Shown here: in pieces, positions 2,628 through 28,017 of the stretch
Numbering within the stretch: the stretch's first letter is position 1
How the letters are laid out: every line of letters starts with the position of its first letter
Origin: Nitrospirota bacterium
GTDB taxonomy: Bacteria; Nitrospirota; UBA9217
Direction of reading: 5' to 3'
Length of the DNA stretch: 64,000 bases
NCBI GenBank assembly: GCA_049793155.1
Contig: JBARBN010000053.1
Span: 285 to 64,284 of the forward strand
Program-made: the position numbers and the translations under genes
Notes under the pieces: generated by a model
The model's input: the letters and a program-made list of their open reading frames with translations, nothing else
Database searches by the model: none
Told to the model about the DNA's origin: nothing

Positions 2628-2704
<77 letters not shown>

Positions 2705-2783
2705 GAATCGCAATTCAAAGCAGCACCCGGCAAAGAGTGCGAACAAGAAACTATTTGCAATTTCCAATGAAGCGAAGCGACAA

Positions 2784-2860: not shown

Positions 2861-2922
2861 TAAAAAATCAGTGCGTCAACGATCAACCCGTTCGAGATAC
2901 CTTTGAGAACCGCGACCTCTGT

Positions 2923-2948
2923 GTCATTCTGAGCAAAGCGAAGAATCC
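2923..2948. repeat. half-copy of intergenic repeat family A (gtcattctgagcaaagcgaagaatcc)
   Basis: It matches both arms of the inverted repeat at 63737-63846. It generates the spurious peptide ...ILRFAQNDT... in ORF 2449..2958. Confidence 0.7.
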
Positions 2949-3072
2949 TGGTTGTCAAATCTATCGAAAAACCCTTCTCGCTGCTCAGAGCGCTGCCTTG
3001 AGCCTGCCGAAGGGGTGATGCATCCGACTTTTTAGGCGCGCATCAATTTTTTACAGGCCGTTGAATTTTTTG

Positions 3073-3101
3073 TTGCATCAGGCGTTAAAGATAAGTATAA
3101 T
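3073..3101 (+). promoter_or_regulatory. sigma70-type promoter (TTGCAT-17-TATAAT) upstream of tRNA-Lys and tRNA-Leu (and possibly tig)
   Basis: TTGCAT at 3073-3078, a 17-nt spacer, and consensus TATAAT at 3096-3101, 36 nt before tRNA-Lys. Confidence 0.55.
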
Positions 3102-3136
3102 AACCGCTCTTTGTATCTGATACTCTCATCGCGTAT

Positions 3137-3212
<76 letters not shown>

Positions 3213-3293
3213 TATTAAAACTCAGGGAGCAGTGAGCAGCAGGCAGCGGGTCGTGATGGCTGCTTTACGTTCACTGCTTTCTTTGTTCCTGAA

Positions 3294-3376
3294 GCGAGAG
3301 TGGCGGAACTGGCAGACGCGCCAGACTTAGGATCTGGTGGGCGACCATGGGGGTTCAAGTCCCCCCTCTCGCACCA
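3294..3376 (+). tRNA. tRNA-Leu (anticodon TAG), class II with long variable arm
   Basis: Acceptor gcgagag/ctctcgc, anticodon stem ccaga/tctgg, loop ct-TAG-ga, long variable arm, encoded CCA. Confidence 0.9.
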
Positions 3377-7397: not shown

Positions 7398-7667
7398 TGT
7401 TGATCGCCTTTTTCCCTTTTTTCTGATCTCGTTCTCCGTCTTCAGACTTCCCTCATTTCATTTGTGAATCCCTACAGCTTAATAAAGGTCGTCATTAGCA
7501 ACCGGAAACTTTTTTTCTGTTATACTAACAACAGAATCGTCTCTGAGAGTGCAGATGTGCGGATACGACGCTGAAATAAGTCTATAGTTGCAGTGCCGGA
7601 ATGGCAATAAAGTTATCGTTGGTTATGAAAGCTTAACGTGTACGCTTTATTAATGAAGGAGTCAGTG

Positions 7668-8393
7668 ATGCAAAAGGCATCTGTTTTATGCTTCACGCTG
7701 GCAATGTGTTTTTATTTTACCCATGCCTCCTTTGCTTATGAAACGATTCCTTTCAAAAATGGCGGAAACATCGAGGGCACGGTGGAGTTTGCCGGGGCAC
7801 AGGTACCAAGTGATCCCATTGTCTCACTTACCTCCGAGACGGAATTCTGTGGTAACAGCATGCCCGCCCAACAATACCTGATCAGGAATAGAAAGGTCCA
7901 GAATGTGATCCTTTTCCTGGATGGCATCAAGGCAGGAAAGGCGATTCCCCGGGAGGCGCTTACGGTGACGAGTCGAAAATGCGCATTCGTTCCTCATGTT
8001 GCGGCGGGATTCAAGGGAAATAAGATCATCTTGAAGACCGATGATCCGGTATTCCATGCCTTTGATATTCATGCTTCCATAAGCGGCAAGGAGATCTATC
8101 ACGTCGCTCTTCATGAAAAAGATTCCTCGGTGACAAAAACTCTTTCGAAGGACGGTCTTCTGGATCTCACGTGTTATACCCATCCCTGGCAGCATGCATA
8201 CGTCTATATTTTTGATCATCCGTATGTAGCGATTACAGATGAAAAGGGTGAATTTGTCATCAAAGACATTCTCCCGGGAACCTATACGGTCAAAGCCTGG
8301 CACGAAGCGCTGGAGATAACAGAGATCCGGGATATAAAAGTTGAAAGCGGGAAAACCAGCACCATTAAAGTCAAGTACAACAAGGAGCATTAA
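7668..8393 (+). CDS. secreted cupredoxin-domain protein, paralog 1 (Cys-His-Gln site), with a carboxypeptidase-regulatory-like C-terminal domain
   Basis: Signal peptide MQKASVLCFTLAMCFYFTHASFA. FVPHVAAGFKGNKIILKTDDPVFHAF fits the cupredoxin pattern F-x-P...N-x-D...H. Ligand loop TCYTHPWQH (C-x2-H-x2-Q). C-terminus EKGEFVIKDILPGTYTVKAW. A GAAGGAG RBS precedes the ATG at 7668. Confidence 0.7.
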   Translation: MQKASVLCFTLAMCFYFTHASFAYETIPFKNGGNIEGTVEFAGAQVPSDPIVSLTSETEFCGNSMPAQQYLIRNRKVQNVILFLDGIKAGKAIPREALTVTSRKCAFVPHVAAGFKGNKIILKTDDPVFHAFDIHASISGKEIYHVALHEKDSSVTKTLSKDGLLDLTCYTHPWQHAYVYIFDHPYVAITDEKGEFVIKDILPGTYTVKAWHEALEITEIRDIKVESGKTSTIKVKYNKEH

Positions 8394-8417
8394 TCTTTCT
8401 TACTGAGGAGGTTCGTG

Positions 8418-9131
8418 ATGAAAAGAAGCGTTATTTTTTTTAGTGTTTTGGCGGTACTGTTTTCTTTCTCTGCAGTTTCCTTTGCCTATGAAACGATCGA
8501 AGTGAAGAATGGGGGAAGCATCGAAGGCGTGGTCGAGTTTACAGGGGCAACGGTCCCGAAGGATCCCATGGTCACGCTGAGTTCCGAGGTAAAATACTGC
8601 GGCAAAACGCTCCCGGCGGAAAAGTATCTGATCAAGGATAAGATGATCGAAAACGTCGTTGTGTATTTGACGGATATCAAGTCCGGAAAGGCGATTCCCG
8701 GCGAGCCGGTCACCCTGACGAATATAAAATGTCTTTTTTCGCCTCATGTCGCCGTCGGCTTCAAGGGCGGCAAGATCATTCAGAAGAACGATGACCCCAT
8801 CTTTCACAATATCCATACGTATCTGAACGGCAAGACAATGTTCAATATAGGTCTTCCTGAAAAGGGATCTTCGGTGACGAAGCCATTGCTGAGGGACGGC
8901 CTCATGGAAGTGACGTGCGACAGCCATCCCTGGATGCATGGTTTTATCCAGATTCTGGACCATCCCTACGGAGTAGTCACCAATGCAAAAGGAGAATTTT
9001 CAATAAAAGACATCCCCGCCGGCACCTATACCGTTGAAGCCTGGCACGAGGCCCTGGGCAAGGTAAAAGTGGCAAATGTCAAAGTTGAAAGCGGTAAGGC
9101 CAGCAAGATCAAGCTCGAATACAAAAAATAA
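8418..9131 (+). CDS. secreted cupredoxin-domain protein, paralog 2 (amicyanin-like Cys-His-Met site)
   Basis: Colinear with the upstream gene. Roughly half the residues are identical by eye. NDDPIFHNIH plus TCDSHPWMHGF (C-x2-H-x2-M, compare amicyanin CTPHPFM). Signal peptide and a GAGGAGG RBS are present. Confidence 0.7.
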   Translation: MKRSVIFFSVLAVLFSFSAVSFAYETIEVKNGGSIEGVVEFTGATVPKDPMVTLSSEVKYCGKTLPAEKYLIKDKMIENVVVYLTDIKSGKAIPGEPVTLTNIKCLFSPHVAVGFKGGKIIQKNDDPIFHNIHTYLNGKTMFNIGLPEKGSSVTKPLLRDGLMEVTCDSHPWMHGFIQILDHPYGVVTNAKGEFSIKDIPAGTYTVEAWHEALGKVKVANVKVESGKASKIKLEYKK

Positions 9132-9155: not shown

Positions 9156-10424
9156 ATGAAAAAGGGTACGTTGCTGGGGGTTTTGGTTTTTTTTCTGGTT
9201 GTCATGATGATGCCGTATGAGTCTTACGCTGTTCCGTCCTATGCCCGTCAGGTCCAGAAGCCCTGCACTGCCTGTCACACCGTCTGGGGAAACCTGAACC
9301 AGTACGGAAGACAGTTCAAGGTCAAGGCGTATACCGATGTGAGCGAGAAATGGGAGATGATCAACAAGGACAACATGAACCTGCCGACGATCGCCCCGTT
9401 TTCCACGAGGGTCGTCCTTGAGCCATATGTAAAAGACAACACTCCCGGTGCCCCGGGCTCGACCAGCGACGTCAATCAAGTTGCGATATTCATGGCAAGC
9501 AGGGTTTTTGATTACGCCGGCGTATTTGCGAGCGCCGAGGCCGATGGCTTTTCCGCCACCTCGGGCGGCGGTACATTTAGCATACCGACTGTAAAAGTGG
9601 CTTTTCAGTATCCCCTGGGAGAGGGCAATACCATAGGCCTGGTCGCCTTCGGAGGGCTCGCCGCATCAGCAGATCCCTTTAACACCTTGGGAGGCAGGGA
9701 CCGGGACCTGTCTTTTGATGACGGGACTCCCTTTATCCTTAATACAGGCTGGACGTTCAATTTCTGGAGCGGAACGAACATCGGTGAAGTTCTTCACGGC
9801 TACTTCCTCGGCAACCGTCTCTATGCTGCCGTGGGCGTAATGAGGGGCGGGAACACAGCGGATGGTATAGCCGGCCTGTCAAACGCCGATAATTCAGATC
9901 CCAATGATATGTACTATCGCATTGCCTGGGACCAGAAACTTCCGAACGGCGCGGTCACCTTCGGAGGCGTTCTTTACGATGGCAAACAGAGGATTACCAC
10001 TGGAGGCTTACCCTCCTATGATTCCAAGGTTAAAAGGTCGTATGTTGACCTATCGTTGGAGCAAAACTACGGAGAGGACCATATCGTCGAATTGCAGGTA
10101 CTCTACGGCGGCGGCGAGGACAAGAACGTATTTAACGACGACACGGGGGGAAGAAAGTTCAGCGGTTCCTATGTTCAGGCTGATTATTACTATGACAGGA
10201 CGATCGGCGTGATAGCTTCTCTCAACAACATAAAATACAAGGATGTCTTAGCAACAGACCTGACCCCGATTGACAAAGTCGATCAATGGCTTGTCGGCGT
10301 TAATTACATGCCCTGGCTGAACACGAAAGTGGCCCTTCAATATGCGAACGCCAAGACAACGATGTTGGACGGCACGGATTCAACCAACAGGATCACGAGA
10401 CTCGTGTTGGATCTCCTGTACTAA
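9156..10424 (+). CDS. outer-membrane monoheme cytochrome-porin fusion (Cyc2/Cyt572-like)
   Basis: Signal peptide, then a single CxxCH (KPCTACH) about 12 residues into the mature protein. After that come about 380 aa with no further Cys, rich in Gly and aromatics with an alternating beta-strand pattern, ending ...LVLDLLY (C-terminal aromatic). Confidence 0.6.
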   Translation: MKKGTLLGVLVFFLVVMMMPYESYAVPSYARQVQKPCTACHTVWGNLNQYGRQFKVKAYTDVSEKWEMINKDNMNLPTIAPFSTRVVLEPYVKDNTPGAPGSTSDVNQVAIFMASRVFDYAGVFASAEADGFSATSGGGTFSIPTVKVAFQYPLGEGNTIGLVAFGGLAASADPFNTLGGRDRDLSFDDGTPFILNTGWTFNFWSGTNIGEVLHGYFLGNRLYAAVGVMRGGNTADGIAGLSNADNSDPNDMYYRIAWDQKLPNGAVTFGGVLYDGKQRITTGGLPSYDSKVKRSYVDLSLEQNYGEDHIVELQVLYGGGEDKNVFNDDTGGRKFSGSYVQADYYYDRTIGVIASLNNIKYKDVLATDLTPIDKVDQWLVGVNYMPWLNTKVALQYANAKTTMLDGTDSTNRITRLVLDLLY

Positions 10425-10440: not shown

Positions 10441-10468
10441 CTCCCGGGGGCCGGCCGGTCCCCGGGGT
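10441..10468 (+). terminator. GC-rich hairpin between the cytochrome-porin gene and the bd-like oxidase gene (possible attenuator or RNA-stability element)
   Basis: cccgggg (10443-10449) pairs with ccccggg (10460-10466). It lies in the only sizeable gap (71 nt) of the operon. The downstream T-run is weak. Confidence 0.3.
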
Positions 10469-10495: not shown

Positions 10496-12241
10496 ATGGC
10501 GGAAGCCGATGTGAAAAAAGGCATCCTGAAGGGAATTGTTAAATTTACTGCCACTCTCGGCGCTGGCTTTATACTCCTCGTTGTTCTTAAAAATATGCTG
10601 GCCGCGCCTTCAGAGGACGGATACCGGTTCTTCCCCCTTATCGGAAGCAGGGACTGGATCTGGATCATCGCCCAGCTCCACCTGAATTTCGCCGCCTTCG
10701 TCCTGGGGGTCCCCATCTTTGCGGTTGCGATGGAGTTCATGGGATGGAAAAAGAAGGATGAGAGACTGGATCGTATCGCGTATGACTTTACCAAGCTTTT
10801 TACGCTGGCGTATAGCGTGACGGCGGTTATGGGCTCTTTCTTTCTCATCAGTCTTCCGCTGCTCTACCCTAAATTTATCGATTATATGATGAAGATACTC
10901 GGGCCCACCTGGTGGTTGTACCTCATCGTGATGTATGGAGAGGTGTTCGTCTGTTATTATTATTTTTATTCCTGGAAAAAATTGAAAGAACGGAAGGGCT
11001 TTCATGTCGCCGTGGGCGTGCTGTTGAATATCCTCGGGGCGACGCTGCTTTTGATCACCAGTTCATGGGTCGGATTCATGACCACCCCGGCAGGCGTGAA
11101 CGCGGACGGTGATCTGGTCAGCAGATGGGCCGCGATCCACACTCACATGTGGATACCCCTGTCCATGCATCGGTTCGTGGCCAACATCGTATTCGGGGCA
11201 GGGATCGCCGCGGCCTATGCGGCCTTCAGATTCATTACCGCAGAGACGGATGAAGAACGGGCATATTTTGACTGGATGGGCTATACCTCGGCGATCATAT
11301 CGATCGGGGCCTCACTCCTGCTGCCCGGTGTCGGGTATCTTCTCGGTGTCGAGATCTATTCCTTCAATGAACAAATGGGCATCCAGCTCATGGGAGGATT
11401 TTTCGCGTGGTTGTGGGTCATGCAGTCCATCATGATCGGCGCGATCCTGTTCTTCATCAATTATTATCTCTGGATATCTCTCCAAAAAATGCCGGGAGGT
11501 GAACGGTATTTCACGCATGTAAAATTCATATTTATTGCACTGGTCATAGGCTATGCGGTCTGGCTCGTGCCCCATGATGTAGCGCTGAGCCTCGAAGAGG
11601 CACGGCGGACGGGCACGTATCATCCCGCACTGGGCAAACTGGGCGTCATGGCCGCAAAGAACACCGCTGTAATCCTTTCCTATCTCGCCACTTTTTTGAG
11701 CTTCGCCATTTTCCGGATGAGCAACAAAGAGGCGACCGTTTCCTGGGCCAAAAAAGGGAATATCGCCCGGACGCTGATCATTGTCGGCTCAGTCGCCGGC
11801 GTGCTGGGGATCGGCATCTACAGTTATTACGTCTCCGCGGCAGTAAGAGTGAAGGTCCTTTCACCCATCCAGTTCGGTATCTTCTTCCTTTCCCTTGTTG
11901 CCCTGTATGTTCTTGACAGCGCCATGTATAAGGGCGCCCGGATCATCGGCGAACCGAGGTGGGGCAAGATGCCCGAGCGATCGCAGTATGCGCTTATCGC
12001 GATAACCGTGACCTTTACCTGGCTGATGGGGATGCTGGGCTACATGAGGGCCGGCGCAAGGCAATACTGGCATGTGTACGGGATCATGAAGAACACGAGC
12101 CCGGACGCCTATCTGCCCACCCATGGATATGCATCGGTCATTGTCACGATCGTCACGCTGCTTTTTCTGCTCCTTATCTCCTTTGTCTTTTGGAGCATCA
12201 TGAAACTTGAGAAGGTCCTTGGTGAAAGGAAGGGGAACTGA
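10496..12241 (+). CDS. cytochrome bd-like oxidase, CydA-related subunit (orphan, about 14 TM)
   Basis: 581 aa with about 14 hydrophobic helices by eye. WIWIIAQLHLNFAAFVLGVPIF resembles the CydA helix-1 His region (..MYHFLFVPLTLG..). SMHRFVANIVFGAGIAAAYAAF resembles the CydA His186 region. No cydB-like gene is adjacent. Confidence 0.6.
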   Translation: MAEADVKKGILKGIVKFTATLGAGFILLVVLKNMLAAPSEDGYRFFPLIGSRDWIWIIAQLHLNFAAFVLGVPIFAVAMEFMGWKKKDERLDRIAYDFTKLFTLAYSVTAVMGSFFLISLPLLYPKFIDYMMKILGPTWWLYLIVMYGEVFVCYYYFYSWKKLKERKGFHVAVGVLLNILGATLLLITSSWVGFMTTPAGVNADGDLVSRWAAIHTHMWIPLSMHRFVANIVFGAGIAAAYAAFRFITAETDEERAYFDWMGYTSAIISIGASLLLPGVGYLLGVEIYSFNEQMGIQLMGGFFAWLWVMQSIMIGAILFFINYYLWISLQKMPGGERYFTHVKFIFIALVIGYAVWLVPHDVALSLEEARRTGTYHPALGKLGVMAAKNTAVILSYLATFLSFAIFRMSNKEATVSWAKKGNIARTLIIVGSVAGVLGIGIYSYYVSAAVRVKVLSPIQFGIFFLSLVALYVLDSAMYKGARIIGEPRWGKMPERSQYALIAITVTFTWLMGMLGYMRAGARQYWHVYGIMKNTSPDAYLPTHGYASVIVTIVTLLFLLLISFVFWSIMKLEKVLGERKGN

Positions 12242-12756
12242 TGAAAAAGGGCGTCTTGAAGCTCGCGATCATCGTCATTGGCCTGAACTTGATCTTTCTT
12301 TATATTGGTCTGGAGTTTCTTCCCCAGTCGGAATCCAGGCCGCCGAAGGTGATCAAGATCGCGGAAGGCATCTCCCAGGAAGACCTGATCCAGGTCGGCG
12401 AGGAGATCGTTTTTGGAAAAGGCCAGTGCATGGTATGTCACCCGGCAAAACCTGAATCGGGAATGCGGGCTCCATCCATGGCCGCAATAGGAGCAGACCT
12501 GGAGAAGGAGGCCCGCGAGCGGGGGATGACGTCCGAAGATGTTGTTTTCGAGGCCCTTATCAACCCCTCCAAATACATCGTAAAGGGGTTTGAAGACAGC
12601 ATGTCGCGCGTGGACAAGCCTCCGACGTCGCTGACCGACGGGGAGATCATAGCAGTAGCAGCATATCTGCAGAGCCATGGAGGAAAAGTCACGCTTTCCT
12701 ATCCCGGTTCTGTCCCGATCCTGAAGGGCCAAATAGCAAAGTCAGGAGGGAAGTAA
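12241..12756 (+). CDS. membrane-anchored monoheme c-type cytochrome
   Basis: N-terminal TM helix, one CxxCH (GQCMVCH) and a distal Met region. Its ATG overlaps the upstream stop (TGATG). Confidence 0.8.
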   Translation: MKKGVLKLAIIVIGLNLIFLYIGLEFLPQSESRPPKVIKIAEGISQEDLIQVGEEIVFGKGQCMVCHPAKPESGMRAPSMAAIGADLEKEARERGMTSEDVVFEALINPSKYIVKGFEDSMSRVDKPPTSLTDGEIIAVAAYLQSHGGKVTLSYPGSVPILKGQIAKSGGK

Positions 12757-12757
12757 G

Positions 12758-13561
12758 ATGCAATTCATATTCCCCATCATCACTTTGATCGGTTTGACGA
12801 TCTCGATCATCTCCAGTATGAAAAAATCCCCGTTCTTCAACTTCGTGGGTATCCAGATGGCCATCTACGGAGGATTGAAAAGTCTGGCGCTCGTCATGCC
12901 TCCTCTGCCGGGACAAGTTGTTGTCATGCTCGTGATCATGTCCTTCTTTTCGTTTCTCATCTATTTTTCGATCCAGGATGATACGCTGAAGGCCTTTCTT
13001 GAGCCCATGAGAGCGGTCATTGCCGACGATGACAAAAGAATTTTGAGGATACTCATCGTATATGTCCTCATACCCCTGCTGGCCGGATATATAACCTACG
13101 TAGAGGTAAAGCCTGCGTTTGAACCTCCGTTGTCGGGGAGGATCACCCATCCCGAGCCACCGTCGGAGATCGACTTTAAAGGAGACACAATAAAGATACT
13201 CGGATTGGAGAACCCCCTGCGAAAGGATTCTGCGAATCTTTCGAAGTATGGCGAAGAGGGGAAAGTAATTTACTTCCAGAACTGTTTCATCTGTCACGGC
13301 GCTGACTTGGACGGTCGGGGACAATTTGCCCAGGCATTTAATCCGCCGCCGCCTCCCTTCCGGGGCACGGATACGATCGCGCAGCTGCCGGAGTCCTATG
13401 TGTTCTGGAGGATAGCAAAGGGATGGACGGGTCTTTCCGCGGGCGCGACCCCATGGGATTCAGCCATGCCGGCATTTGAGAATATACTTACACAGGAACA
13501 GACGTGGAAGGTGATCCTCTATATGTATGAAGCTACCGGTAACAAACCAAGGACATGGTAA
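12758..13561 (+). CDS. polytopic membrane protein with a C-terminal monoheme cytochrome c domain
   Basis: 3-4 N-terminal TM helices followed by YFQNCFICHGADLDGRG ...WDSAMPAF (class I cytochrome c). There is a 1-nt gap to the upstream gene. Confidence 0.75.
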   Translation: MQFIFPIITLIGLTISIISSMKKSPFFNFVGIQMAIYGGLKSLALVMPPLPGQVVVMLVIMSFFSFLIYFSIQDDTLKAFLEPMRAVIADDDKRILRILIVYVLIPLLAGYITYVEVKPAFEPPLSGRITHPEPPSEIDFKGDTIKILGLENPLRKDSANLSKYGEEGKVIYFQNCFICHGADLDGRGQFAQAFNPPPPPFRGTDTIAQLPESYVFWRIAKGWTGLSAGATPWDSAMPAFENILTQEQTWKVILYMYEATGNKPRTW

Positions 13562-13586
13562 GGATATGCGGAAGGGAGATTCTCCA

Positions 13587-15008
13587 ATGAGGTTTTTTAT
13601 TGCCCTTGTTTTGCTCGCGTCAATTCCAATGACCGCACTTTCCGAAGAGAAGGGAAAGGCCCTCTATGATCAGTCGTGCGCTTCATGCCATGGGGAAAAG
13701 GGCGATGGGAAGGGCCCGGCGGCTGATTTCGTGTTCCCGAAACCAAGGGATTTTACGAAGGGCACGTACAAATTCAAATCCACGGGGTCGGGTGAGCCGG
13801 CCCTTGATTCGGACATTCTCCGGACAATACGGGAGGGAAATCCCGGTACGTCGATGCCTGCCTGGAAACGCTTCAGCGATGATGAGGCCAAAGCGCTTGT
13901 CGTTTATCTGAAGCAGTTTTCTCCGGATACCTTTTCGATACAAGGCGCCCCTTTCAAGATAGGTAATCCGCCGGGCAACAAGGATAAGATGATAGCACTC
14001 GGGAAGGAACTGTACCAGTCGGTGAAGTGCTGGGAATGTCACGGCAAGGCCGGCAGGGGCGACGGCGAGAAGGGATGGCAGGAAAAGTTCAAGGACGATT
14101 GGGGCAACAAGATATATCCTGCAGACCAGACAAGTCCCTGGGAATACAGGGCAGGCAGTGATCCGAAGGATGTGTTAAAAACGATTTCAGTCGGTTTCGA
14201 CGGTACGCCCATGACCTCATACGGAGATACGGTCACGGAGGAGAAGAGGTGGGCGCTTGCGTATTTTGTGCAATCGCAGCAGCAGACAAGGGTCCTCGGC
14301 CCGGCATTGCGGGTGAAAAAAGTGGAGGCCATCCCCGCTGCAACCGACGATCCGGTCTGGCAGGGCGTTGAGTATCTTGATCTTCCGATGGCAGGACAGG
14401 TGATCTTTGAGCCGCGTGATTTTACCGCGTTGATCACCAATGCGCGGGTACGAGGGGTCTATAGCAAGACCGAGTTGGCAGTGATGATAGAGTGGACCGA
14501 CAAACAGCAAAACAAGGGTGAGGACAATCTCCCCCCCGACGCAGCACGTATACAGTTCCCGACCAAAGCCCCGGAAGTAGCCAAGCCGTACTTATTCATG
14601 GGGGACAAGAAACTGGGGGTCAATATCTGGCAATGGAAGGCCTCTGACAATCTTGCTGTTGAATTCACTGCAGCAGGACCCGAGAATCTGACTCAGCAGG
14701 AAAAACAGGACGTGAAAGTAACTGCTGCGTTTACAGATGGACGCTATAGGGTCATGTTCAGGAGGCTGTTGAACTCAGCCAATGAAAACCACACCGTTTT
14801 TGAAGTCGGCAAGTTTATGCCGTTTTCGGTTACCCTCTACGATGGTCGTAATAATGAGTCGGACAAGAAGGGGGCGATCTCAGCTTGGTATTACCTGGTG
14901 CCGGAGCCGGCAACGCCTGCGAAGGTTTATATGCTCCCGCCCCTGGTATTCCTTGTCATACTCGGCATCGGCTTTATATTGCACAAGAAGTTGAGGAAGA
15001 AACGTTAG
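13587..15008 (+). CDS. diheme cytochrome c fused to an EB_dh/DOMON-like (heme b type) domain, with a C-terminal TM anchor
   Basis: Signal peptide MRFFIALVLLASIPMTALS. CASCHGEKGDGKG and CWECHGKAGRGDG. A roughly 200-aa domain, DDPVWQGVEYLDLPMAGQ..., resembles the ethylbenzene-dehydrogenase gamma family. C-terminus VYMLPPLVFLVILGIGFILHKKLRKKR. An alternative start exists at 13566. Confidence 0.65.
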   Translation: MRFFIALVLLASIPMTALSEEKGKALYDQSCASCHGEKGDGKGPAADFVFPKPRDFTKGTYKFKSTGSGEPALDSDILRTIREGNPGTSMPAWKRFSDDEAKALVVYLKQFSPDTFSIQGAPFKIGNPPGNKDKMIALGKELYQSVKCWECHGKAGRGDGEKGWQEKFKDDWGNKIYPADQTSPWEYRAGSDPKDVLKTISVGFDGTPMTSYGDTVTEEKRWALAYFVQSQQQTRVLGPALRVKKVEAIPAATDDPVWQGVEYLDLPMAGQVIFEPRDFTALITNARVRGVYSKTELAVMIEWTDKQQNKGEDNLPPDAARIQFPTKAPEVAKPYLFMGDKKLGVNIWQWKASDNLAVEFTAAGPENLTQQEKQDVKVTAAFTDGRYRVMFRRLLNSANENHTVFEVGKFMPFSVTLYDGRNNESDKKGAISAWYYLVPEPATPAKVYMLPPLVFLVILGIGFILHKKLRKKR

Positions 15009-15025
15009 GCAGGAGAATCATCGGC

Positions 15026-16021
15026 ATGTACAAAAAAATATTTATCCCTATAGATAACTCGAAATATTCCCGCTACTGTACCGACATTGGGGTGTCCCTG
15101 GCTTCCAAGCTCGGTTCCGAACTGATCGGCAGCCACGTCTACAGCGCGCGTTTGCACGACAAGCGGTTCCGGGACATGGAGGCAGGACTGCCCGGGCATT
15201 ATCAGGAGGAAGGCAGACTGCGGAAATCGAGAAAGGTCCACGATTCCCTGATCGGGGACGGGTTGAGAATAATCTCCGATTCTTATCTGGAATCCTTTAA
15301 AAAGGACTGCAGGGAATCCTCAGTGCCGTTCAATTGTAAAATGATGGAGGGGAAAAACTGGCTGGAGCTGGTAAAAGACATCCGAAGCAGCGGCTATGAT
15401 CTGGTGATCATGGGGATCCTCGGCCTCGGCGCGATGAACGGCAACCTTATCGGGAGTGTCTGTGAACGGGTAGTGCGGAAGGTCACGGCAGATGTCCTGG
15501 TCGTAAAGAACAGTGAACCGCTCAATGAACGGATCGTCGTGGCGATCGACGGCAGCGATCATTCCTTTTCGGCATTGAAAAAAGCACTGGCCCTGAACAA
15601 ACAGTTTCATTCGAAGATCGAGGCCGTATCCGTTTATGACCCCTATTTTCACAGAAGGGCCTTCCAGGCTCTGGTGGGCGTCCTCTCAGACGAAGCCGGG
15701 AAAATGTTCAAGTTTAAGGATCAGGAAAAGCTGCACGATGAGGTCATTGATGACGGTTTGGGAAAGATATATCAGGGGTACCTTGAACAAGCTGTTCAGA
15801 TAGGGGCCGCTCAAGGGGTCGAAGTGAAAAGTACGCTTCTCGCAGGAAAGGCGTATGACGAAATCCATAAATATCTGGAAAAAGACCCGCCATCTCTTCT
15901 CATCGTAAGCCGCTTTGGTGCGCATACGACCGACGAACAGGACATCGGCAACACTGCAGAGAACCTTCTTCGCCTTGCACCGTGCAATCTGCTTATCACG
16001 GGTAATTCTCACGTTGAATGA
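15026..16021 (+). CDS. tandem universal stress protein (two UspA domains)
   Basis: MYKKIFIPIDNSKYS..., VIMGILGLG...GSVCERVVRK..DVLVVK, and a second repeat IVVAIDGSDHS...LLIVSRFG...GNTAENLLRLAPCNLLI. An AGGAGA RBS precedes the ATG at 15026. Confidence 0.8.
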   Translation: MYKKIFIPIDNSKYSRYCTDIGVSLASKLGSELIGSHVYSARLHDKRFRDMEAGLPGHYQEEGRLRKSRKVHDSLIGDGLRIISDSYLESFKKDCRESSVPFNCKMMEGKNWLELVKDIRSSGYDLVIMGILGLGAMNGNLIGSVCERVVRKVTADVLVVKNSEPLNERIVVAIDGSDHSFSALKKALALNKQFHSKIEAVSVYDPYFHRRAFQALVGVLSDEAGKMFKFKDQEKLHDEVIDDGLGKIYQGYLEQAVQIGAAQGVEVKSTLLAGKAYDEIHKYLEKDPPSLLIVSRFGAHTTDEQDIGNTAENLLRLAPCNLLITGNSHVE

Positions 16022-17246: not shown

Positions 17247-18521
17247 ATGAACGACCTCCATGTTATATCCTGGAATGTCACTAGAAGATGTAATCTTGAA
17301 TGCACCCATTGCTATCTTCCCGCGGATACGAGAAAAGAAAGTTCTGCTCTTCCCGCCGCTGACGAACTCTCCACCAAGGATGCCTTCCGGCTCATCGATC
17401 AAATTGCCGCTGTCAACCCCGAGGTCATGCTGATCCTGTCTGGAGGAGAACCCCTCCTGAGAGGGGACATTTTTGATCTATCTGCGTACGCCTCAGGTAA
17501 GGGCATGATGGTTGTTATGGGTTCCAATGGACTCCTTATTGATGACGCCGTTGCCCGCAAGCTGAAACAGGCCGGGGTCTCCGGGATAAGCATCAGTCTT
17601 GATTCAATCGACCCGATAATTCACGATGATGTCCGCTCTTGCCCGGGCGCCTGGAAAAGGGCGGTAGCGGCAATAGAGAACTGCAAGAACGCGGGATTGT
17701 CAGTGCAGATCAATACGGTTGTCACCGGCAGGAACTGTGATGAGCTGCCCGCATTGATGAACTTTTCTCAAAAACGGGGAGTAAAGGTCTTTAGCCCGTT
17801 CTTCCTGGTCTGTACCGGCAGGGGAGAAGAACTGACGGACATATCGCCGCAGCAATACGAATTGGTATTGTCCCGGATCGTCGAGTCTCAGGGAAAATAT
17901 GGCGATCTGATGATAAGGACACGGTGCGCCCCGACAATACGTCGAATTCTGTATGATAAAGATCCCGACTCATCGCTGCTCAAGATGGGCGCCGGGCGTT
18001 GTCTCGCCGGTTTGACCTATTGCCGGATCACGCCTGAAGGTGACGTGACACCCTGTCCATACCTGTCCGTTTCAACCGGAAATATCCGCGAGCGGGATTT
18101 CGGGGACATCTGGAACAACTCCAGCCTCTTCGACTCTCTGAGAAATCCTGCTCTCAAGGGCAAATGTAAAGGATGTGCCTTGCGCCTCGTCTGCGGCGGT
18201 TGCAGAGCGAGGGCCTATGAGACCTATAAAGACTACCTGGAAGAAGATCCCTGGTGCAGCTATATTCCCAATGGAGGTGAAGTGGTGAAACCACCATCGT
18301 TCGGCAAGGATAACAATGCTTCAGCAAATGGATCGATCAAGCCTCTCTGGACGGCGGAGGCGGAAGAGCGGTTGAAGAGGGTGCCCTCGTTCGTTCGCAC
18401 GATGGTAAGAAGCGCCGCGGAGCGTTACGCGATCGAGCATAATTATCAAGAGATCACCCCTGGTATGATGGAAGAACTCAAACAAAAAGCAGGGATGGGA
18501 GGAATGGGTGGACATCGATAA
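17247..18521 (+). CDS. radical SAM/SPASM protein (AhbD/NirJ-like) with a C-terminal PCP_red-like extension
   Basis: CNLECTHCY radical SAM cluster motif and SGGEPLL. A Cys-rich SPASM region (CPYL..., CKGCALRLVCGGCRARA). The C-terminal roughly 70 aa (PLWTAEAEERLKRVPSFVRTMVRSAAERYAIEHNYQEITPGMMEE) resemble the protochlorophyllide-reductase 57-kD C-terminal domain. Confidence 0.7.
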   Translation: MNDLHVISWNVTRRCNLECTHCYLPADTRKESSALPAADELSTKDAFRLIDQIAAVNPEVMLILSGGEPLLRGDIFDLSAYASGKGMMVVMGSNGLLIDDAVARKLKQAGVSGISISLDSIDPIIHDDVRSCPGAWKRAVAAIENCKNAGLSVQINTVVTGRNCDELPALMNFSQKRGVKVFSPFFLVCTGRGEELTDISPQQYELVLSRIVESQGKYGDLMIRTRCAPTIRRILYDKDPDSSLLKMGAGRCLAGLTYCRITPEGDVTPCPYLSVSTGNIRERDFGDIWNNSSLFDSLRNPALKGKCKGCALRLVCGGCRARAYETYKDYLEEDPWCSYIPNGGEVVKPPSFGKDNNASANGSIKPLWTAEAEERLKRVPSFVRTMVRSAAERYAIEHNYQEITPGMMEELKQKAGMGGMGGHR

Positions 18522-19996: not shown

Positions 19997-21217
19997 ATGA
20001 GGTTATCAATGCGGTATAGTTGTGCTTTAGCTGCGCTGTTGTTATTAGGCCTCGGTGATGCAACAACTGCATCGGCTGTAGTCGTCGAAGGAAGAAGTTC
20101 CACGGAGCTTCTGTGGTACAACGATATTGTCGATGGCAGCAAGCAGACGGAGGCCGCGGAGTTGCTCAGGGTCTCGATCAGCGGTATCGACAACGGCAAC
20201 AAACTGTCCATCAAGGGGTACGGCAAACTCGATTATGATTTGAAGCACGGCGGTGATCTGGAAAATCGATTGTATTATTTATATGCCGACTACAAGGGTT
20301 TCATGGACAAGGCCGATATCAAACTGGGACGGCAGTTTGTGAACCTGTCAGCCGGCAGCGCTCTTCTGGACGGCATCGAGGCGGACATCAACAAGATCGG
20401 CCCCGTTGGTTTCGTGATCACGGGGGGGCGGGACGTCATTTTCGGTGAAGAAAAGGAGTTGGCGAGCCATCTCTATTCTTACGGCGCTCAGGCGTACCTC
20501 ACCGGCCCTCAGATGACCTATCTTGATATCAGCTACTATCGTGCTTACGATTATGGCGATATCGCCCGGGATATCATCGGCAGCAGCTACAAGCAATATT
20601 TTTTCAATCTCGTCAAAGCATACGCGAATGCCAGGTATGATCTCACGAGCAAGTCGTTCAACGAGGTCCTTGCGGGACTCAAGTATTTCCCGACGCTGAA
20701 CCTGATGCTGACCGCTGAGCATTATGAAAGTTACCCTACGTTTGATACGACCTCCATATATTCGGTATTTGCCGTCGATAAGTTCAAGGAGAATTTATTC
20801 AGGGCAGAATATACGCTGGCTGCATGGGTCGATATCAGCCTTGCCTTCAGCCATGAGAGCGTCGGTGAGGGCGGCCAAGCGAAATTGTACGAGGCAGGGT
20901 TGAGGTTCAGGCCTTCGATGAACACGACGATTGGCGTCTTCCACGACAAACGCAATGGATATCCCGGGGACCTTGACGGATATAAGATCTACGCTGAATA
21001 CAGCGCCATGGGAAAATGGAAGGCCGCAGGGGGCATTGACTATGATGCCTATGAACGGGACGACATGACCGGCCAGGAGACTGCACGCAAATACTGGGTC
21101 GGTGGAAAGTATGTTTTTGCAAAAAATATGGCCAGCTCGATTCGTTTGGAGGACGATGTCAATGTCAACTATACGAAAGACATACAGGGCAGGCTTACCT
21201 TTGATGTTGATTTCTAA
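19997..21217 (+). CDS. putative outer-membrane beta-barrel porin of a porin-cytochrome conduit
   Basis: Signal peptide ...GDATTASA. 406 aa with alternating hydrophobic and aromatic strands, many Y/G/D turns, and a C-terminal ...RLTFDVDF. The nonaheme gene starts 17 nt downstream. Confidence 0.6.
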   Translation: MRLSMRYSCALAALLLLGLGDATTASAVVVEGRSSTELLWYNDIVDGSKQTEAAELLRVSISGIDNGNKLSIKGYGKLDYDLKHGGDLENRLYYLYADYKGFMDKADIKLGRQFVNLSAGSALLDGIEADINKIGPVGFVITGGRDVIFGEEKELASHLYSYGAQAYLTGPQMTYLDISYYRAYDYGDIARDIIGSSYKQYFFNLVKAYANARYDLTSKSFNEVLAGLKYFPTLNLMLTAEHYESYPTFDTTSIYSVFAVDKFKENLFRAEYTLAAWVDISLAFSHESVGEGGQAKLYEAGLRFRPSMNTTIGVFHDKRNGYPGDLDGYKIYAEYSAMGKWKAAGGIDYDAYERDDMTGQETARKYWVGGKYVFAKNMASSIRLEDDVNVNYTKDIQGRLTFDVDF

Positions 21218-21233
21218 TGAAAGGGGAGCATCC

Positions 21234-22307
21234 ATGAAGAAATTGCTCATATTGGCAATGGTGATAGTTATTGCTTCGGCGGTGGTTGCATTTGCCGCTC
21301 ATAATCCAGGCATAACTGCGCAGACGGAATCTCCTGCAGCACAACCGGCGTCGCCTCCCGGAGATCAGTCATCAGCGACTCCTGCAGAACCGGCGCCCCA
21401 GACGGAAGCATCTGCTCCGGCAACACCCGCTCCGGTGGAACCTGCTCCGGCGACACCTGCTCCAGCAGCGTCTGCTCCGGTGGCACCTGCTACGACAGCT
21501 CCTGCTCCACAACAGGAGGCCTCTCCGGCGCCGGCCTGGCAACCGGCTACTTCGGCGACATCCACGGCTGCTTCAACTGCGCCGCCTGCAGGGTTCATGG
21601 TTCAGCAAATGTCCCATAAAGATTTTGCGAAAATGGACTTAAAAGAGTGCACGAAATGCCATAAAGGTTCAGGCGTTGCACCGACTCACGGGTCAGATCA
21701 GATGAGGGAACACAGTTTCCTCGCACGCCGAGCCGGAAAGAACTGTACGGACTGTCATAACCAGCAGTTCTGTTTAGATTGTCACAAGGGCGGCGGCATT
21801 GACGCGGATCTGAGCGTCTCGAATTATCGTACGAGCTACGTACCCAAAACCCACCGGACCGATTTCCGGGAGATCCATCCCATAAAGGCACTGGACAATC
21901 CGCAGTCCTGCTACCGGTGCCACGACGCGAAATACTGTTCAGAGTGCCATGCCAAGTTCAAGGGAGATGATCTCAGGATACAGTCTCACCGCAGGGCGTG
22001 GTCTGACCTTCAAGCAGGAAATCCGGGCCCTGCCCACGCTTCATTTACCGCGGACCAGTGCCAGACCTGCCATCCGGGCGGGCTTCTTCCAAAGCATGTA
22101 TGGTCTGCTGACCATGCGCAGGAGGCGCGGAGGAACCTGCAGGCATGCCAGACCTGTCACAGTGACGGCGATGTATGCATGACCTGTCACAGCGCCCGGC
22201 GCGGCCTCATGGTCAATCCTCATCCCAGGGGATGGGACTCTGTGAAGGGCAGATATAGCAAGAAGAGCGGCGGTCGAAGCTGTCAAAAGTGTCATGATAC
22301 TTATTAA
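21234..22307 (+). CDS. periplasmic nonaheme c-type cytochrome with an N-terminal Pro/Ala-rich spacer
   Basis: Signal peptide MKKLLILAMVIVIASAVVAFA. About 100 aa of P/A/T/S low complexity. Nine CxxCH motifs (CTKCH, CTDCH, CLDCH, CYRCH, CSECH, CQTCH, CQTCH, CMTCH, CQKCH) in about 235 aa. An AGGGGAG RBS precedes the start. Confidence 0.85.
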   Translation: MKKLLILAMVIVIASAVVAFAAHNPGITAQTESPAAQPASPPGDQSSATPAEPAPQTEASAPATPAPVEPAPATPAPAASAPVAPATTAPAPQQEASPAPAWQPATSATSTAASTAPPAGFMVQQMSHKDFAKMDLKECTKCHKGSGVAPTHGSDQMREHSFLARRAGKNCTDCHNQQFCLDCHKGGGIDADLSVSNYRTSYVPKTHRTDFREIHPIKALDNPQSCYRCHDAKYCSECHAKFKGDDLRIQSHRRAWSDLQAGNPGPAHASFTADQCQTCHPGGLLPKHVWSADHAQEARRNLQACQTCHSDGDVCMTCHSARRGLMVNPHPRGWDSVKGRYSKKSGGRSCQKCHDTY

Positions 22308-22405
22308 CGACGGGCCATATTGAATCGATATGAATAACACCTGAGGGAATAGGGAGTCACGAAGAATCATGATTGCCATCCCATCAAAGCAAGGAGGATC
22401 GCAAA

Positions 22406-24604
22406 ATGTTTAAACGATTCGGGATCATTTTTGGGTTACTAACGATTTTACCAGCCTTGTTTCTCGTTTATGGATGCGGAAACAGCAAGCGAGAGTCGGC
22501 GGGCGAAGCTCCCATCGCAGCGGTGAGCGCTGCCGGAAATATCCAGGCCAATATTACCGGTGCGGTGGTTTCCGCTACGACCGGCAGTTTGGTCGTCACA
22601 TTCACCCTGTTTGATGAAAAGGGGTCGGCATTGGATCCTGCGGATGCCACTATTAACGGGAAAAGCTTCGTTATAGCCCAGCTCGGCGCTGACGGTGAGT
22701 ACCATGATCCGATCCGCAATTCAAGTAGACAGCCCACGGCTGATTCGGGAGGCACGTTTGCCGGATCAGGTGGCACCTACACCTATGCCTTCGGCAAGAA
22801 CATCACAACGCTGCCCGGGTATGATGCCACGAAAACGTATACCGTGGCCGCCTATATCGGAAGAACCATTTCGAACGTAGTCGGCTCGCCCTTTCGGCAG
22901 ATATCCAATCCGCGATTTGACTTCAGGCCCGATGGTACAGCGGCAACGGATCACCGGGAGATCGTTGCCATTGATGCCTGCAATGAGTGCCACGGTAAGC
23001 TCACCGCCCATGAGGGCAACCGGATGGATGTCCCCCTTTGTATCCTCTGCCACAATCCAGGCGAGATCGATACCGATACCGGCAATACGATCGATTTCAA
23101 AGCAATGATCCACAAGATACACATGGGAAGCAAACTGCCCAGCAATACAAGGGGTGGCGCTTACGGCATCATCGGATTTGGCAATGCACAGCACGACTTC
23201 TCAAAGGTTGTCTATCCGCAGATGTCCGGGGATACCCAAACAGATAATGCTCCTGTTGATTGCGTCAAATGCCACCGGCTCGGTACAGACACGAACGGTA
23301 AAGCGTACGGCAAAGATGTTGATAAGTGGAAAACGAAACCAAGCATAGAGACATGCACCGGGTGCCACGATGTGTACACCTTTGATGGCATTACAAGCTC
23401 AGTGACAGTCACGACGTTTGCAGGGGTCGTCACCTCCGTGACGGCTTCAGCTCACTCCGGCGGCGTACAGCCGCTGGATAGCTCCACCTGTGCGGTGTGC
23501 CATACGGGCACAGGAGACGATGCATATGCATCCATCTCGGTTCCCGCGGTTCATACGATCCCGATCAAGTCGAGCCTTAATCCGGGACTCGTTTTTAGTA
23601 TTGTTTCCGCAACCGGTATTGCATCGGGTTTGACGCCGTCGGTCACCTTTACCATTACAGACAAGACGGGGGCCAATGCCGTTATGGTGCTTGGCGACCG
23701 TACGGATGTGATCATGGGGTACATGACCGGTATTGAGTATGACAATACGCTGGCAAATTGGATTTTCGGTCAGAGCACGGTTCAGGGAAAAGCGGCGAAT
23801 GCCTTCTCAACATCCGTCACGACAACGGCGAATGCAGACGGATCCTATACGGTCTCCTATGATAGGCCCTGGTATGTGCCGTCTGCCACGAAATTGAAAC
23901 CAGTACTGCCGCCAAGCGGCGTTGTTACGTTCGCCGTATATGGCGGGAAAGCAGTAACGATCCCGGCTGCCAATACAGCGCATCGAGTGGCCGCTGGGAC
24001 AAGCAAGGTCACCATGACTTCAACCTCGGTTGCGATCAACTACTATGATATCGCGACCGGTTTGACCGCAACTCCGGCACAACAGCGCCGGCAGGTGGTC
24101 TCAACTGAGCTCTGTAATGTCTGTCATTTGCAACTTGCATTCCACGGCCGGAGGACAGAAACTCAGCTCTGCGTAATGTGCCATGGCCCGAATCTTACTT
24201 ATTTAGCGCCATCGAGCAGCCCCTCACCCGGCTACTCGGGCAATTTGAAGGATTTTGTTCATGGCATCCACGGGGCGACAACTTCAACTACTGTTTTCAG
24301 AGGAGTGGAAGTCGCAGAAATTCCGAATGATCCGAGGAAATGCAGTATCTGTCACCTCAATAATTCCCAATTGTTGCCGCTGCCCGTGGGGGTAAAGGGC
24401 TCACTCAAAACAGGAACAACCGGAACGTCTTTGGATGGTACGCCGGTGTTAACGATAAAAGCCGCATGCGTGGCGTGCCATGAAAACCCCTTGACAGCAA
24501 CACACGCAGACAGTAAAGTTATTTCCGGAAGTGAAACCTGTGTGGTCTGCCATGGGACAGGATTACTCATGGGTGTAGATGCTGTTCATTTGCCGGCTAA
24601 TTAG
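22406..24604 (+). CDS. lipoprotein decaheme c-type cytochrome with MtrC/OmcA-like four-domain layout
   Basis: Lipobox LVYGC. Ten CxxCH motifs sit in two groups of five (nt 22977-23504 and nt 24113-24553). Each group is preceded by a roughly 190-200-aa heme-free, Thr/Ser/Val-rich region. An AAGGAGGA RBS precedes the start. Confidence 0.8.
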   Translation: MFKRFGIIFGLLTILPALFLVYGCGNSKRESAGEAPIAAVSAAGNIQANITGAVVSATTGSLVVTFTLFDEKGSALDPADATINGKSFVIAQLGADGEYHDPIRNSSRQPTADSGGTFAGSGGTYTYAFGKNITTLPGYDATKTYTVAAYIGRTISNVVGSPFRQISNPRFDFRPDGTAATDHREIVAIDACNECHGKLTAHEGNRMDVPLCILCHNPGEIDTDTGNTIDFKAMIHKIHMGSKLPSNTRGGAYGIIGFGNAQHDFSKVVYPQMSGDTQTDNAPVDCVKCHRLGTDTNGKAYGKDVDKWKTKPSIETCTGCHDVYTFDGITSSVTVTTFAGVVTSVTASAHSGGVQPLDSSTCAVCHTGTGDDAYASISVPAVHTIPIKSSLNPGLVFSIVSATGIASGLTPSVTFTITDKTGANAVMVLGDRTDVIMGYMTGIEYDNTLANWIFGQSTVQGKAANAFSTSVTTTANADGSYTVSYDRPWYVPSATKLKPVLPPSGVVTFAVYGGKAVTIPAANTAHRVAAGTSKVTMTSTSVAINYYDIATGLTATPAQQRRQVVSTELCNVCHLQLAFHGRRTETQLCVMCHGPNLTYLAPSSSPSPGYSGNLKDFVHGIHGATTSTTVFRGVEVAEIPNDPRKCSICHLNNSQLLPLPVGVKGSLKTGTTGTSLDGTPVLTIKAACVACHENPLTATHADSKVISGSETCVVCHGTGLLMGVDAVHLPAN

Positions 24605-27777: not shown

Positions 27778-28017
27778 GGTAAATCCTCCTTTGTCATTTT
27801 TAAAAATCCCGATATTGCCATGGAGATGCCACCGGTGCCTTTTGGACCGAGAACCGCACTCGAGGAGCAAGCTTTAATAAGCACCTATATCATAGGATAA
27901 CGCTTTCGCGCGATATTTTCCAGTGTTTTAAGGTGTCAGAATATAATCGATAGACTGCATTGGAATGAATACTCGATGTATTTCAAAATGAATGTCCGGC
28001 ACACCGGCCCTGTTAAC

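Follow-up and report, generated by a model that had tools for sequence, protein, structure and literature searches.

We analyzed a window of 64,000 nucleotides from a Nitrospirota bacterium (GTDB lineage UBA9217; contig JBARBN010000053.1 of assembly GCA_049793155.1, positions 285 to 64,284 of the forward strand) with a focus on a gene for a membrane protein related to cytochrome bd oxidases. The gene starts with ATG, lies at 10496..12241 on the plus strand, and encodes a 581-amino-acid subunit with 14 predicted transmembrane helices, apparently of the OR-N2 or NIDE0901-like type. Upstream on the same strand are genes for two cupredoxin-like proteins, which we call CuA and CuB, and for a Cyc2-type cytochrome-porin; downstream are genes for three cytochromes c (cytc1, cytc2, and cytc3), a universal stress protein (Usp), and a radical SAM protein. 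A preliminary description of this locus, made from the sequence alone, had called the bd-like gene an orphan. That label is misleading: the gene forms the center of a conserved unit that has a gene for a type-1-copper-like protein on its upstream side and, in this genome, one for a Cyc2-type porin as well.

The bd-like protein has the fold of a bd oxidase subunit I, and its first four helices are homologous to that subunit. Hydropathy analysis gives about 14 hydrophobic segments, and an AlphaFold2 model built from a 37-sequence alignment (predicted local distance difference test score, pLDDT, 87; predicted template-modelling score, pTM, 0.88) contains 14 long helices of at least 22 residues each plus a short helical pair at residues 276-299, in agreement with the helix count given earlier. 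Helices 1-7 span residues 6-34, 51-85, 89-123, 125-158, 167-196, 219-248, and 252-273, and helices 8-14 span residues 304-331, 335-356, 385-408, 418-445, 448-477, 494-521, and 543-580. When the model is compared with the PDB using Foldseek, all of the top 10 hits are subunit I chains of bd oxidases (bd-I, bd-II, and other bd oxidases), with probability 1.00 and template-modelling scores of 0.5-0.6 when normalized to the target; CydB comes next. Transporters appear only at E > 0.1 with scores below 0.2, ruling out an unrelated transporter family; membership in such a family, or a lack of heme-ligand residues, is what the preliminary description had said would speak against its assignment, and the Foldseek hits and the alignments described below show neither. 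At the level of sequence, the Pfam profile Cyt_bd_oxida_I (PF01654) matches the N-terminal half of the protein (58 bits, E 7e-16, profile positions 9-236 of 418 only), and phmmer matches the protein to Geobacillus CydA (5DOQ_A) at E 2e-8.

Searching the 64 kb by tblastn with E. coli CydA, CydB, and CydX and with the bd-like protein itself yields only noise outside the gene (E > 0.2). The best match for CydB or CydX has an E-value of 0.24, that is, no similarity, and no cydB is adjacent, the downstream genes being cytochromes; the earlier statement that neither cydB nor cydX follows is thus correct for the whole window. The tblastn searches also reveal no OR-N1 partner or second cydA-like gene in the 64 kb.

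We derived residue equivalences from the Geobacillus alignment and from a second one, made with MAFFT, that included E. coli CydA together with 14 diverse relatives. The histidines already pointed out in the motifs QLHLNF (H62) and SMHRF (H225) align with the E. coli heme ligands H19 (Geobacillus H21) and H186, respectively. The proton-path residues E107 and H126 are kept as E149 and H170, E99 (Geobacillus E101) is replaced by Y142, and F114/F116 correspond to Y156/Y158. The b595 ligand E445 is lost; its position is occupied by M513 here and by Leu in most relatives. The Q-loop residues K252 and E257 face a gap in the window protein and, in the model, only about 30 residues (274-303) follow the helix at 252-273, the sixth CydA-equivalent helix. 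Four positions and the Q-loop had been singled out beforehand for this comparison: the equivalents of H19 and H186 are in place and the Q-loop is absent, E99 is not retained (of the two glutamates only E107 is kept), and M393 is ambiguous. The MAFFT alignment with E. coli CydA places K453 opposite M393, a placement that we rejected as not credible. M385 is a candidate for this ligand, although the assignment is ambiguous; M385 and N389 reproduce the spacing of M430 and N434, which were published as OR-N2 candidates for the M393 position.

The heme-ligand histidines and the equivalents of E107 and H126 are kept over 37 diverse family members, and the quinol-site residues fall in a gap. In this set, which extends down to 28% identity, R52, H62, Y142, Y156, H170, H225, R226, Y324, W326, P359, E368, and K388 are invariant or nearly so. 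E149, M385, H360, H376, and H526 are each present in 31-33 of the 37 proteins (M385 in 31), and H360, H376, H526, and E368, taken as a set, are conserved in 31-35. We rejected the motif IHTHMW, which had been put forward as an extra His cluster, as a metal or heme site; H215 and H217 vary even among relatives that are 65-93% identical, and the conserved extra histidines are H360, H376, and H526.

This combination of features has a precedent. Murali, Gennis & Hemp (2021) defined the OR-N family, including the 14-transmembrane-helix subfamilies OR-N1 and OR-N2, which lack the quinol site. Their residue row for OR-N2 (Supplementary Table 6) has H19 kept, E99 changed to Y, E107 kept, F114/F116 changed to Y/Y, H126 and H186 kept, and E445 lost, and the row for the window protein is equal to it position by position. 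Like OR-N2 proteins, the window protein has 14 transmembrane helices and neither a Q-loop nor a CydB partner, and its operon is similar; the published OR-N2 operon contains several cytochromes c and an EbdC-like heme b subunit, often without a second cydA-like gene. E149, the retained E107, sets the protein apart from OR-N1, which has Gly at this position. Together, the published signature and operon match points to a member of the OR-N2 or NIDE0901-like group, in line with the preliminary assignment to the bd-like family of Nitrospira and thus to a kind of protein that is already known but has not been characterized biochemically; in later papers on the NIDE0901-like OR-N2 subunit, the subunit composition and function are unconfirmed. 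Compared with canonical CydAB(X) (E. coli 6RKO/6RX4, Geobacillus 5DOQ), the window protein shares the subunit I fold, the H19/H186 ligands, and the E107/H126 proton-path residues, but it has five extra helices and is missing K252/E257 of the Q-loop, E99, E445, CydB, and CydX. In place of quinol, the unit has cytochrome c and cupredoxin-like partners.

The three cytochrome genes follow the bd-like gene very closely. cytc1 (12241..12756, plus strand) encodes a membrane-anchored monoheme cytochrome c of 171 amino acids with one N-terminal transmembrane helix and a CMVCH site (Pfam Cytochrom_C); its ATG overlaps the TGA stop codon of the bd-like gene by 1 nt. cytc2 (12758..13561, plus strand), which starts 1 nt past the cytc1 stop codon, encodes a polytopic monoheme cytochrome c of 267 amino acids with 3-4 N-terminal transmembrane helices and a CFICH site (Pfam Cytochrom_C / Cytochrome_CBB3). 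cytc3 (13566..15008, plus strand) encodes a diheme cytochrome c (CASCH and CWECH) joined to an EB_dh / NxrC-like heme b domain and a C-terminal transmembrane anchor. Its start is most likely the ATG at 13566 or the one at 13587, 4 or 25 nt past the stop codon at 13561, and not the mechanical open reading frame (ORF) start at 13527. The preliminary description had listed three coupled genes for c-type cytochromes; all three are indeed tightly spaced and encode membrane-anchored cytochromes, but the heme b domain of the third had been missed.

In cytc3, Pfam finds two Cytochrom_C domains and EB_dh, and the NCBIfam model DMSO_red_II_gam, which describes the heme b-containing gamma subunit of type II dimethyl sulfoxide reductases, scores 96 bits. 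The diheme part matches the Kuenenia cytochrome chain 6H5L_B with an E-value of 2e-44; we take this chain to be part of an NO-binding complex. Homologs of the heme b part are Kuenenia NxrC (7B04_C) and EbdC (2IVF_C). The FMGDKK motif of cytc3 is aligned with the TMGATG motif of EbdC, whose Met is presumably the EbdC heme ligand Met108, and candidate Lys residues follow. These alignments suggest that cytc3 carries a Met-ligated heme b domain.

In three relatives (P0121, P0124, and P0131), the bd-like protein is fused to one or two C-terminal cytochrome c domains through an extra transmembrane helix. Two of these natural fusions, P0121 and P0131, join the bd-like protein and a transmembrane helix to a C-terminal cytc1 homolog with 39% and 34% identity, respectively, to cytc1 of the window. 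Fusions between the bd-like protein and cytc1 argue for a physical complex, and they agree with a topology in which both the N- and the C-terminus of the bd-like subunit lie inside.

CuA (7638..8393, plus strand) and CuB (8415..9131, plus strand) are paralogous, cupredoxin-like periplasmic proteins, each with a C-terminal CarboxypepD_reg domain recognized by Pfam. The real start of CuA is probably an internal ATG (MQKAS...), and the N-terminus of CuB resembles a signal peptide. CuB contains H131 and the loop C168-x2-H171-x2-M174, presumably a type-1 copper loop of the amicyanin type; the corresponding residues in CuA are H-C-H-Q, with Gln as the axial residue. We inspected the ligand columns (H131, C168, H171, and position 174) over 66 homologs from the fetched loci that are described below. 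Every CuB ortholog listed has the H-C-H-M set, in both of the genomic contexts in which the unit occurs. A second paralog group, which includes CuA, has Gln at position 174 throughout, and a third paralog, found in nos (nitrous oxide reductase) clusters only, has Ser in place of Cys. Neither CuA nor CuB has a Pfam cupredoxin match; residues 117-180 of CuB give weak sequence matches in the PDB (E 0.015-0.7) to the blue-copper protein 5FC9_A (E 0.015), copper nitrite reductase, and CoxB. The pattern of ligand residues suggests that CuB may bind copper. On its upstream side, the bd-like module invariably has CuB as a partner, and CuA is present in only some of the loci with a Cyc2-like gene.

Between CuB and the bd-like gene, a gene at 9156..10424 on the plus strand encodes a protein with a signal peptide, a single heme-binding site (C37-T-A-C-H41), and a predicted 16-strand outer-membrane beta-barrel. 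In the AlphaFold2 model (pLDDT 71), we see the signal helix, an unmodelled segment at residues 19-72 that holds the CxxCH site, and 16 beta strands; the Foldseek hits include, at 1e-9, 16-strand general porins such as OmpT, Omp32, and OmpF. The protein has no family in Pfam or NCBIfam. A search for homologs found 171, and the 120 of them that were listed are unnamed or annotated as 'hypothetical protein' and come almost exclusively from Nitrospirota. The predicted structure has the defining architecture of Cyc2, namely a signal peptide, one N-terminal CxxCH, and 16 strands in about 400-450 amino acids; we therefore refer to it as Cyc2-type, a class set by this architecture.

The gap of 71 nt between the Cyc2-like and bd-like genes contains a GC-rich stem-loop at 10442..10467 on the plus strand (11 bp, of which 9 are G-C, with a weak T tail), found in a terminator scan. 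A CCCCGGGG-type hairpin whose stem or loop differs in sequence occupies the same place in L004-L010 and L038, and the more distant loci among those fetched have no equivalent. The hairpin could serve as a partial terminator; alternatively, it might set the subunit ratios as an mRNA-stability element.

To see how widely this arrangement is conserved, we mapped the neighbors of the bd-like gene by tblastn in 42 loci from 42 different species genomes, one locus per genome; the relatives in these loci are at least 65% identical in the bd-like protein, except for two distant Dehalococcoidia loci. At a broader level, 135 clusters from a 50% clustering match the bd-like protein at E < 1e-30. Close homologs (65-98% identical) come from Nitrospirota, including Thermodesulfovibrionales and metagenome-assembled genomes (MAGs) of magnetotactic Nitrospirota, and from a few Desulfatiglandales, Thermodesulfobacteriota, and Aquificaceae. 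The five-gene unit CuB - bd-like - cytc1 - cytc2 - cytc3 is present wherever the fetched sequence reaches, the two distant Dehalococcoidia loci being the exception, and cytc2 is kept in all complete loci.

The unit occurs in two genomic settings. In the window and at least 14 other loci (Type A), the gene order is (CuA) - CuB - Cyc2-like - bd-like - cytc1 - cytc2 - cytc3 - Usp - radical SAM. In at least 19 loci (Type B), the unit is instead embedded in a nos cluster with the order NosZ - FMN-binding protein - NosR-like - NosD - NosF - NosY - Cys-to-Ser paralog - transglutaminase-like - redoxin - CuB - bd-like - cytc1 - cytc2 - cytc3 - NosL (L001, L011, L013, L014, L017-L019, L022, L024, L025, L027, L029, L032-L036, L039, and L040). 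Type B is carried by Candidatus (Ca.) Magnetobacterium, Ca. Magnetominusculus, Ca. Magnetomonas (for example L001 1-15056, from Ca. Magnetomonas plexicatena CP049016.1), Thermodesulfovibrio MAGs, and Aquificaceae MAGs; the window itself contains no nos genes in its 64 kb. In a neighbor-joining tree, Type A and Type B proteins are intermixed in a single clade whose members are at least 65% identical, and the conserved positions that we examined are identical in both; we did not see both settings in one genome, with each genome contributing one locus. The interleaving and the shared conserved positions argue that this is one machine combined with different periplasmic or outer-membrane partners. 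In the Aquificaceae-type MAGs (L027-L029), the bd-like protein of the unit is 68-70% identical to that of the window, with nos genes in the fetched sequence of L027 and L029, which suggests that the whole block has moved between phyla. A literature search yielded no description of a nos-embedded or Cyc2-adjacent bd-like module, which is weak evidence of novelty given its incomplete coverage of subscription journals.

Two further genes accompany the unit in the Cyc2 context. A tandem universal stress protein (15023..16021, plus strand; two Pfam Usp domains) starts 14 nt after cytc3 and is syntenic with the module in L004, L005, L007-L009, L012, L020, L023, L026, L031, L038, L041, and L045. In most Cyc2-context loci, it is followed by a gene like the one at 17247..18521 on the plus strand, which encodes a NirJ2/AhbD-like radical SAM/SPASM protein that ends in an extra, PCP_red-like domain (Pfam Radical_SAM, SPASM, and PCP_red). 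The NCBIfam scores of this protein, 331 bits for NirJ2 and 319 bits for AhbD, do not reach the 500-bit cut-offs. The protein could be a dedicated heme-cofactor maturase or just the housekeeping heme b synthase. In the window, a gene for a CsgG-domain-like lipoprotein (16082-16996) separates Usp from the radical SAM gene; among the other Cyc2-context loci long enough to show this region, most have radical SAM behind Usp with at most a short gap. One nos-context genome, L032, contains a second, 41%-identical bd-like gene (21015-21737) directly after its Usp - radical SAM pair, so that the radical SAM gene adjoins it.

What does the complex do? The reading that we favor, with a probability of about 0.5, is that the bd-like complex is a terminal reductase fed by cupredoxins and cytochromes c. 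We rank it first because the family keeps the residues of the ligand-binding heme and of the cytoplasmic proton path (H62, E149, and H170) and discards the quinol site. The partners of the bd-like subunit all appear, judging by their sequences, to be periplasm-facing redox proteins, presumably of high potential. That the complex oxidizes cytochrome c and not quinol had been proposed in the preliminary description; the missing Q-loop, the three cytochromes, and the cytc1 fusions fit this standing hypothesis, which is unproven, and the nos context suggests a competing role in coupling to the quinone pool.

In this model, the bd-like protein would be the catalytic membrane subunit of an OR-N2-type complex. 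It would retain two features of CydA, namely the four-helix bundle that holds the ligand-binding heme, with H62 as the axial ligand, and a b558-type heme on H225 with M385 as the likely sixth ligand. It would assemble with cytc1, cytc2, and cytc3, which together would contribute four c hemes and one Met-ligated periplasmic b heme in place of a quinol site and CydB, and a soluble type-1-copper protein would feed the complex. The direction of electron flow, the acceptor, the copper and heme occupancy, and Fe(II) as the donor are all things that we infer: a donor outside the cell or in the periplasm, most plausibly Fe(II), would reduce the Cyc2-like protein, which would pass electrons to the cupredoxins CuA and CuB, and from there they would flow through cytc1, cytc2, and cytc3 to the H225 heme and then to the H62 heme. 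There, a small oxidant, most likely trace O2, would be reduced with protons taken from the cytoplasm via the retained E149/H170 pathway, making the reaction electrogenic. Among possible acceptors, we consider O2 the most likely, since no other terminal oxidase is encoded in some Nitrospirales genomes.

Support for the donor side comes from gene order, with CuB - Cyc2-like - module conserved in at least 14 species. The operon in the window would provide a complete path from an outer-membrane protein resembling an Fe(II) oxidase to the inner membrane, in analogy to the rus operon of Acidithiobacillus ferrooxidans (cyc2-cyc1-coxBACD-rus). Both contain a Cyc2-type porin, a blue-copper protein (a predicted one in the window), cytochromes c, and a membrane enzyme resembling a terminal oxidase; this is an analogy, and we claim no homology. 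The two differ in that the window encodes a bd-like oxidase and not a heme-copper aa3 enzyme, in that its cupredoxin-like proteins have an extra CarboxypepD_reg domain, and in that its host is probably neutrophilic and anaerobic or microaerophilic. A Cyc2 from Thermodesulfovibrionia (Ca. Mariimomonas) oxidizes Fe(II) when expressed in E. coli (PMC13647500).

Several observations weigh against this reading. The host lineage resembles Thermodesulfovibrionia, and this class is generally regarded as anaerobic. The equivalents of E99 and E445 are lost in the alignment, and therefore the di-heme active site of true bd oxidases is not fully preserved. In at least 19 genomes, the stretch from nosY to nosL contains an ortholog that is 68-78% identical and keeps the examined positions, and given this location inside nos clusters, one would not readily expect an electron sink in competition with NosZ. 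In the literature, no member of OR-N has been purified, O2 reduction by these proteins is an assumption, and a related bd-like gene is found in the strictly anaerobic Kuenenia.

The Kuenenia gene belongs to a gene set that resembles the one in the window. Lucker et al. (2013) described clusters encoding nitrite oxidoreductase (NXR) in Kuenenia, Nitrospira, and Nitrospina that contain a bd-like protein, mono- and diheme cytochromes c, an alternative NxrC, and two cupredoxin-like proteins; in the bd-like protein, helices replace the Q-loop, and the authors raised the possibility of a role in reverse electron transport like that of an alternative complex III. The cluster in Kuenenia also includes a uspA gene, kustd1706. 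The set kustd1706-1713 and the window thus share a 14-helix bd-like protein, mono- and diheme cytochromes c, an NxrC-like heme b protein, two cupredoxin-like proteins, and Usp. In contrast, the window has no NXR and has a Cyc2-like outer-membrane protein as a partner; the sequence comparison between the two was made only via the PDB chains 6H5L_B and 7B04_C. The same gene set is also found in an aerobe: Yu et al. named it TO_1 in Ca. Manganitrophus, an aerobic Mn(II) oxidizer, where its expression is at the 98th percentile. The window differs from the published OR-N2 units in that its host is from a Thermodesulfovibrionia-type lineage that is neither a nitrite nor a Mn oxidizer, in that its 64 kb contain no OR-N1 partner gene, and in that the unit sits directly behind a Cyc2-type cytochrome-porin, or, in sister genomes, inside nos clusters.

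The strongest competitor to a terminal reductase, one that we regard as a serious though clearly less probable possibility, is a module that couples to the quinone pool in the manner of alternative complex III, moving electrons between menaquinol and a periplasmic pool of cupredoxins and cytochromes c through a quinol/quinone site newly evolved in the bd-like subunit. Electrons would run forward to NosZ in the nos context; in the Cyc2 and NXR contexts, the forward flow would end at an outer-membrane acceptor, or else the flow would be reversed at the expense of the proton-motive force. The best argument for this idea is that at least 19 species of Nitrospirota and Aquificaceae have the five-gene unit placed after nosDFY and before nosL, and the nos- and Cyc2-context proteins interleave in one clade with the examined conserved positions in common. 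In other bacteria, electron-supply modules are embedded in nos clusters at such positions, including NosGH/NosC1C2 of Wolinella and modules with Rieske and cytochrome bc proteins. The bd-like unit of the sister genomes resembles these modules and alternative complex III in its position in the nos cluster and in combining a polytopic subunit with c-type cytochromes, but its fold is unrelated and it has neither an Fe-S subunit nor a recognizable quinol site. Strict anaerobes are also among the carriers of the unit, and, as mentioned above, a role of this kind was raised explicitly by Lucker et al. (2013).

Several features are hard to reconcile with coupling to quinones. The Q-loop with K252 and E257 is absent (all of the known quinol residues, according to Lucker et al., 2013), and we identified no alternative site. 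The best-conserved residues serve the ligand-binding heme and the cytoplasmic proton path, which a quinol:cytochrome c oxidoreductase would not need. Moreover, some Nitrospirales would be left without any terminal oxidase, and a split NosR-like protein is already encoded in the nos clusters. It is a serious though less likely possibility that the OR-N2 complex is a bd-fold substitute for complex III, possibly reversible and not primarily an oxygen reductase, that is plugged into NosZ, Cyc2, or NXR depending on the lineage; an NO reductase with a heme and a non-heme metal on the bd fold, considered below, would be a smaller variant of this idea.

Alternatively, the terminal reductase might be a high-affinity oxidase that serves to scavenge O2 for protection and not to conserve energy, keeping the periplasm anoxic for O2-sensitive partners such as NosZ or preventing abiotic chemistry between Fe(II) and O2 at Cyc2. 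Protective roles are known from the literature on canonical bd oxidases, and with such a role, an O2 reductase would be compatible with both the nos synteny and an anaerobic host; the co-transcribed universal stress protein fits a role in stress as well. We nonetheless think this improbable. It is a sub-case of the terminal-reductase reading from which sequence cannot separate it, and the elaborate donor chain and the very high expression in Ca. Manganitrophus favor a main respiratory role, at least in aerobes.

The least probable of the functions that we considered is that of a nitric oxide (NO) reductase or a dual NO/O2 reductase, in which the H62 heme and a non-heme metal on H360, H376, H526, and E368 would form a binuclear center that reduces NO to N2O. 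The ligand set of the FeB site in cytochrome c-dependent NO reductases resembles such a combination of three His and one Glu. The four residues are those conserved in 31-35 of the 37 family members, their helix positions would put them on the periplasmic side, which is also the side of the hemes in bd oxidases, and the homology of the cytc3 diheme domain to 6H5L_B, together with the nos synteny, points in the same direction; this activity would explain the nos linkage as two consecutive steps of denitrification. We lowered it from a leading explanation to a long shot, however, as NorBC is reported to be prevalent in Thermodesulfovibrionia, leaving no missing enzyme to explain, and there is no known precedent for a bd fold that reduces NO.

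Elsewhere in the window, we noted several other features. A probable porin-cytochrome set for extracellular electron transfer lies at 19997-24604; it consists of a 406-amino-acid protein that has a signal peptide and ends in Phe but belongs to no Pfam or NCBIfam family (19997..21217), an MtrC-domain multiheme protein (21102..22307), and a decaheme cytochrome of the OmcA/MtrC family (22373..24604; 367 bits against a cut-off of 209). On the minus strand, a gene whose product contains four cytochrome c domains (26593..27870) adjoins an ORF of 400 amino acids (28018..29220, minus strand) that has no family match in Pfam or NCBIfam. Seven tRNA genes (Pro, three Arg, His, Lys, and Leu) lie at 2062-3376, upstream of tig-clpP-clpX; the mechanical GTG start of trigger factor (3337) overlaps the tRNA-Leu gene, so the real start must be further downstream. 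The window also contains a gene for a DUF3373 protein at 38627-40051 (438 bits) and a 6S RNA gene at 49616-49794 (104 bits).

The OR-N bd-like complexes matter as the presumed main terminal oxidases of nitrite oxidizers of global importance (Nitrospira and Nitrospina) and of Mn(II) oxidizers. The window provides a clean, compact example of OR-N2 from a Thermodesulfovibrionia-type genome, an instance that is ordinary for its class. The dual context of the unit, with Cyc2 in some genomes and nos in others, poses a question that can discriminate between the readings: does the bd-like unit supply NosZ with electrons or compete with it? If the complex does act as a substitute for complex III, the nos-embedded arrangement, present in at least 19 species, would offer a first genomic means of testing this. 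The unit is also a candidate for the inner-membrane terminus of Cyc2-dependent iron oxidation in anaerobic Nitrospirota, a process that was proposed without naming a terminus (PMC13647500).

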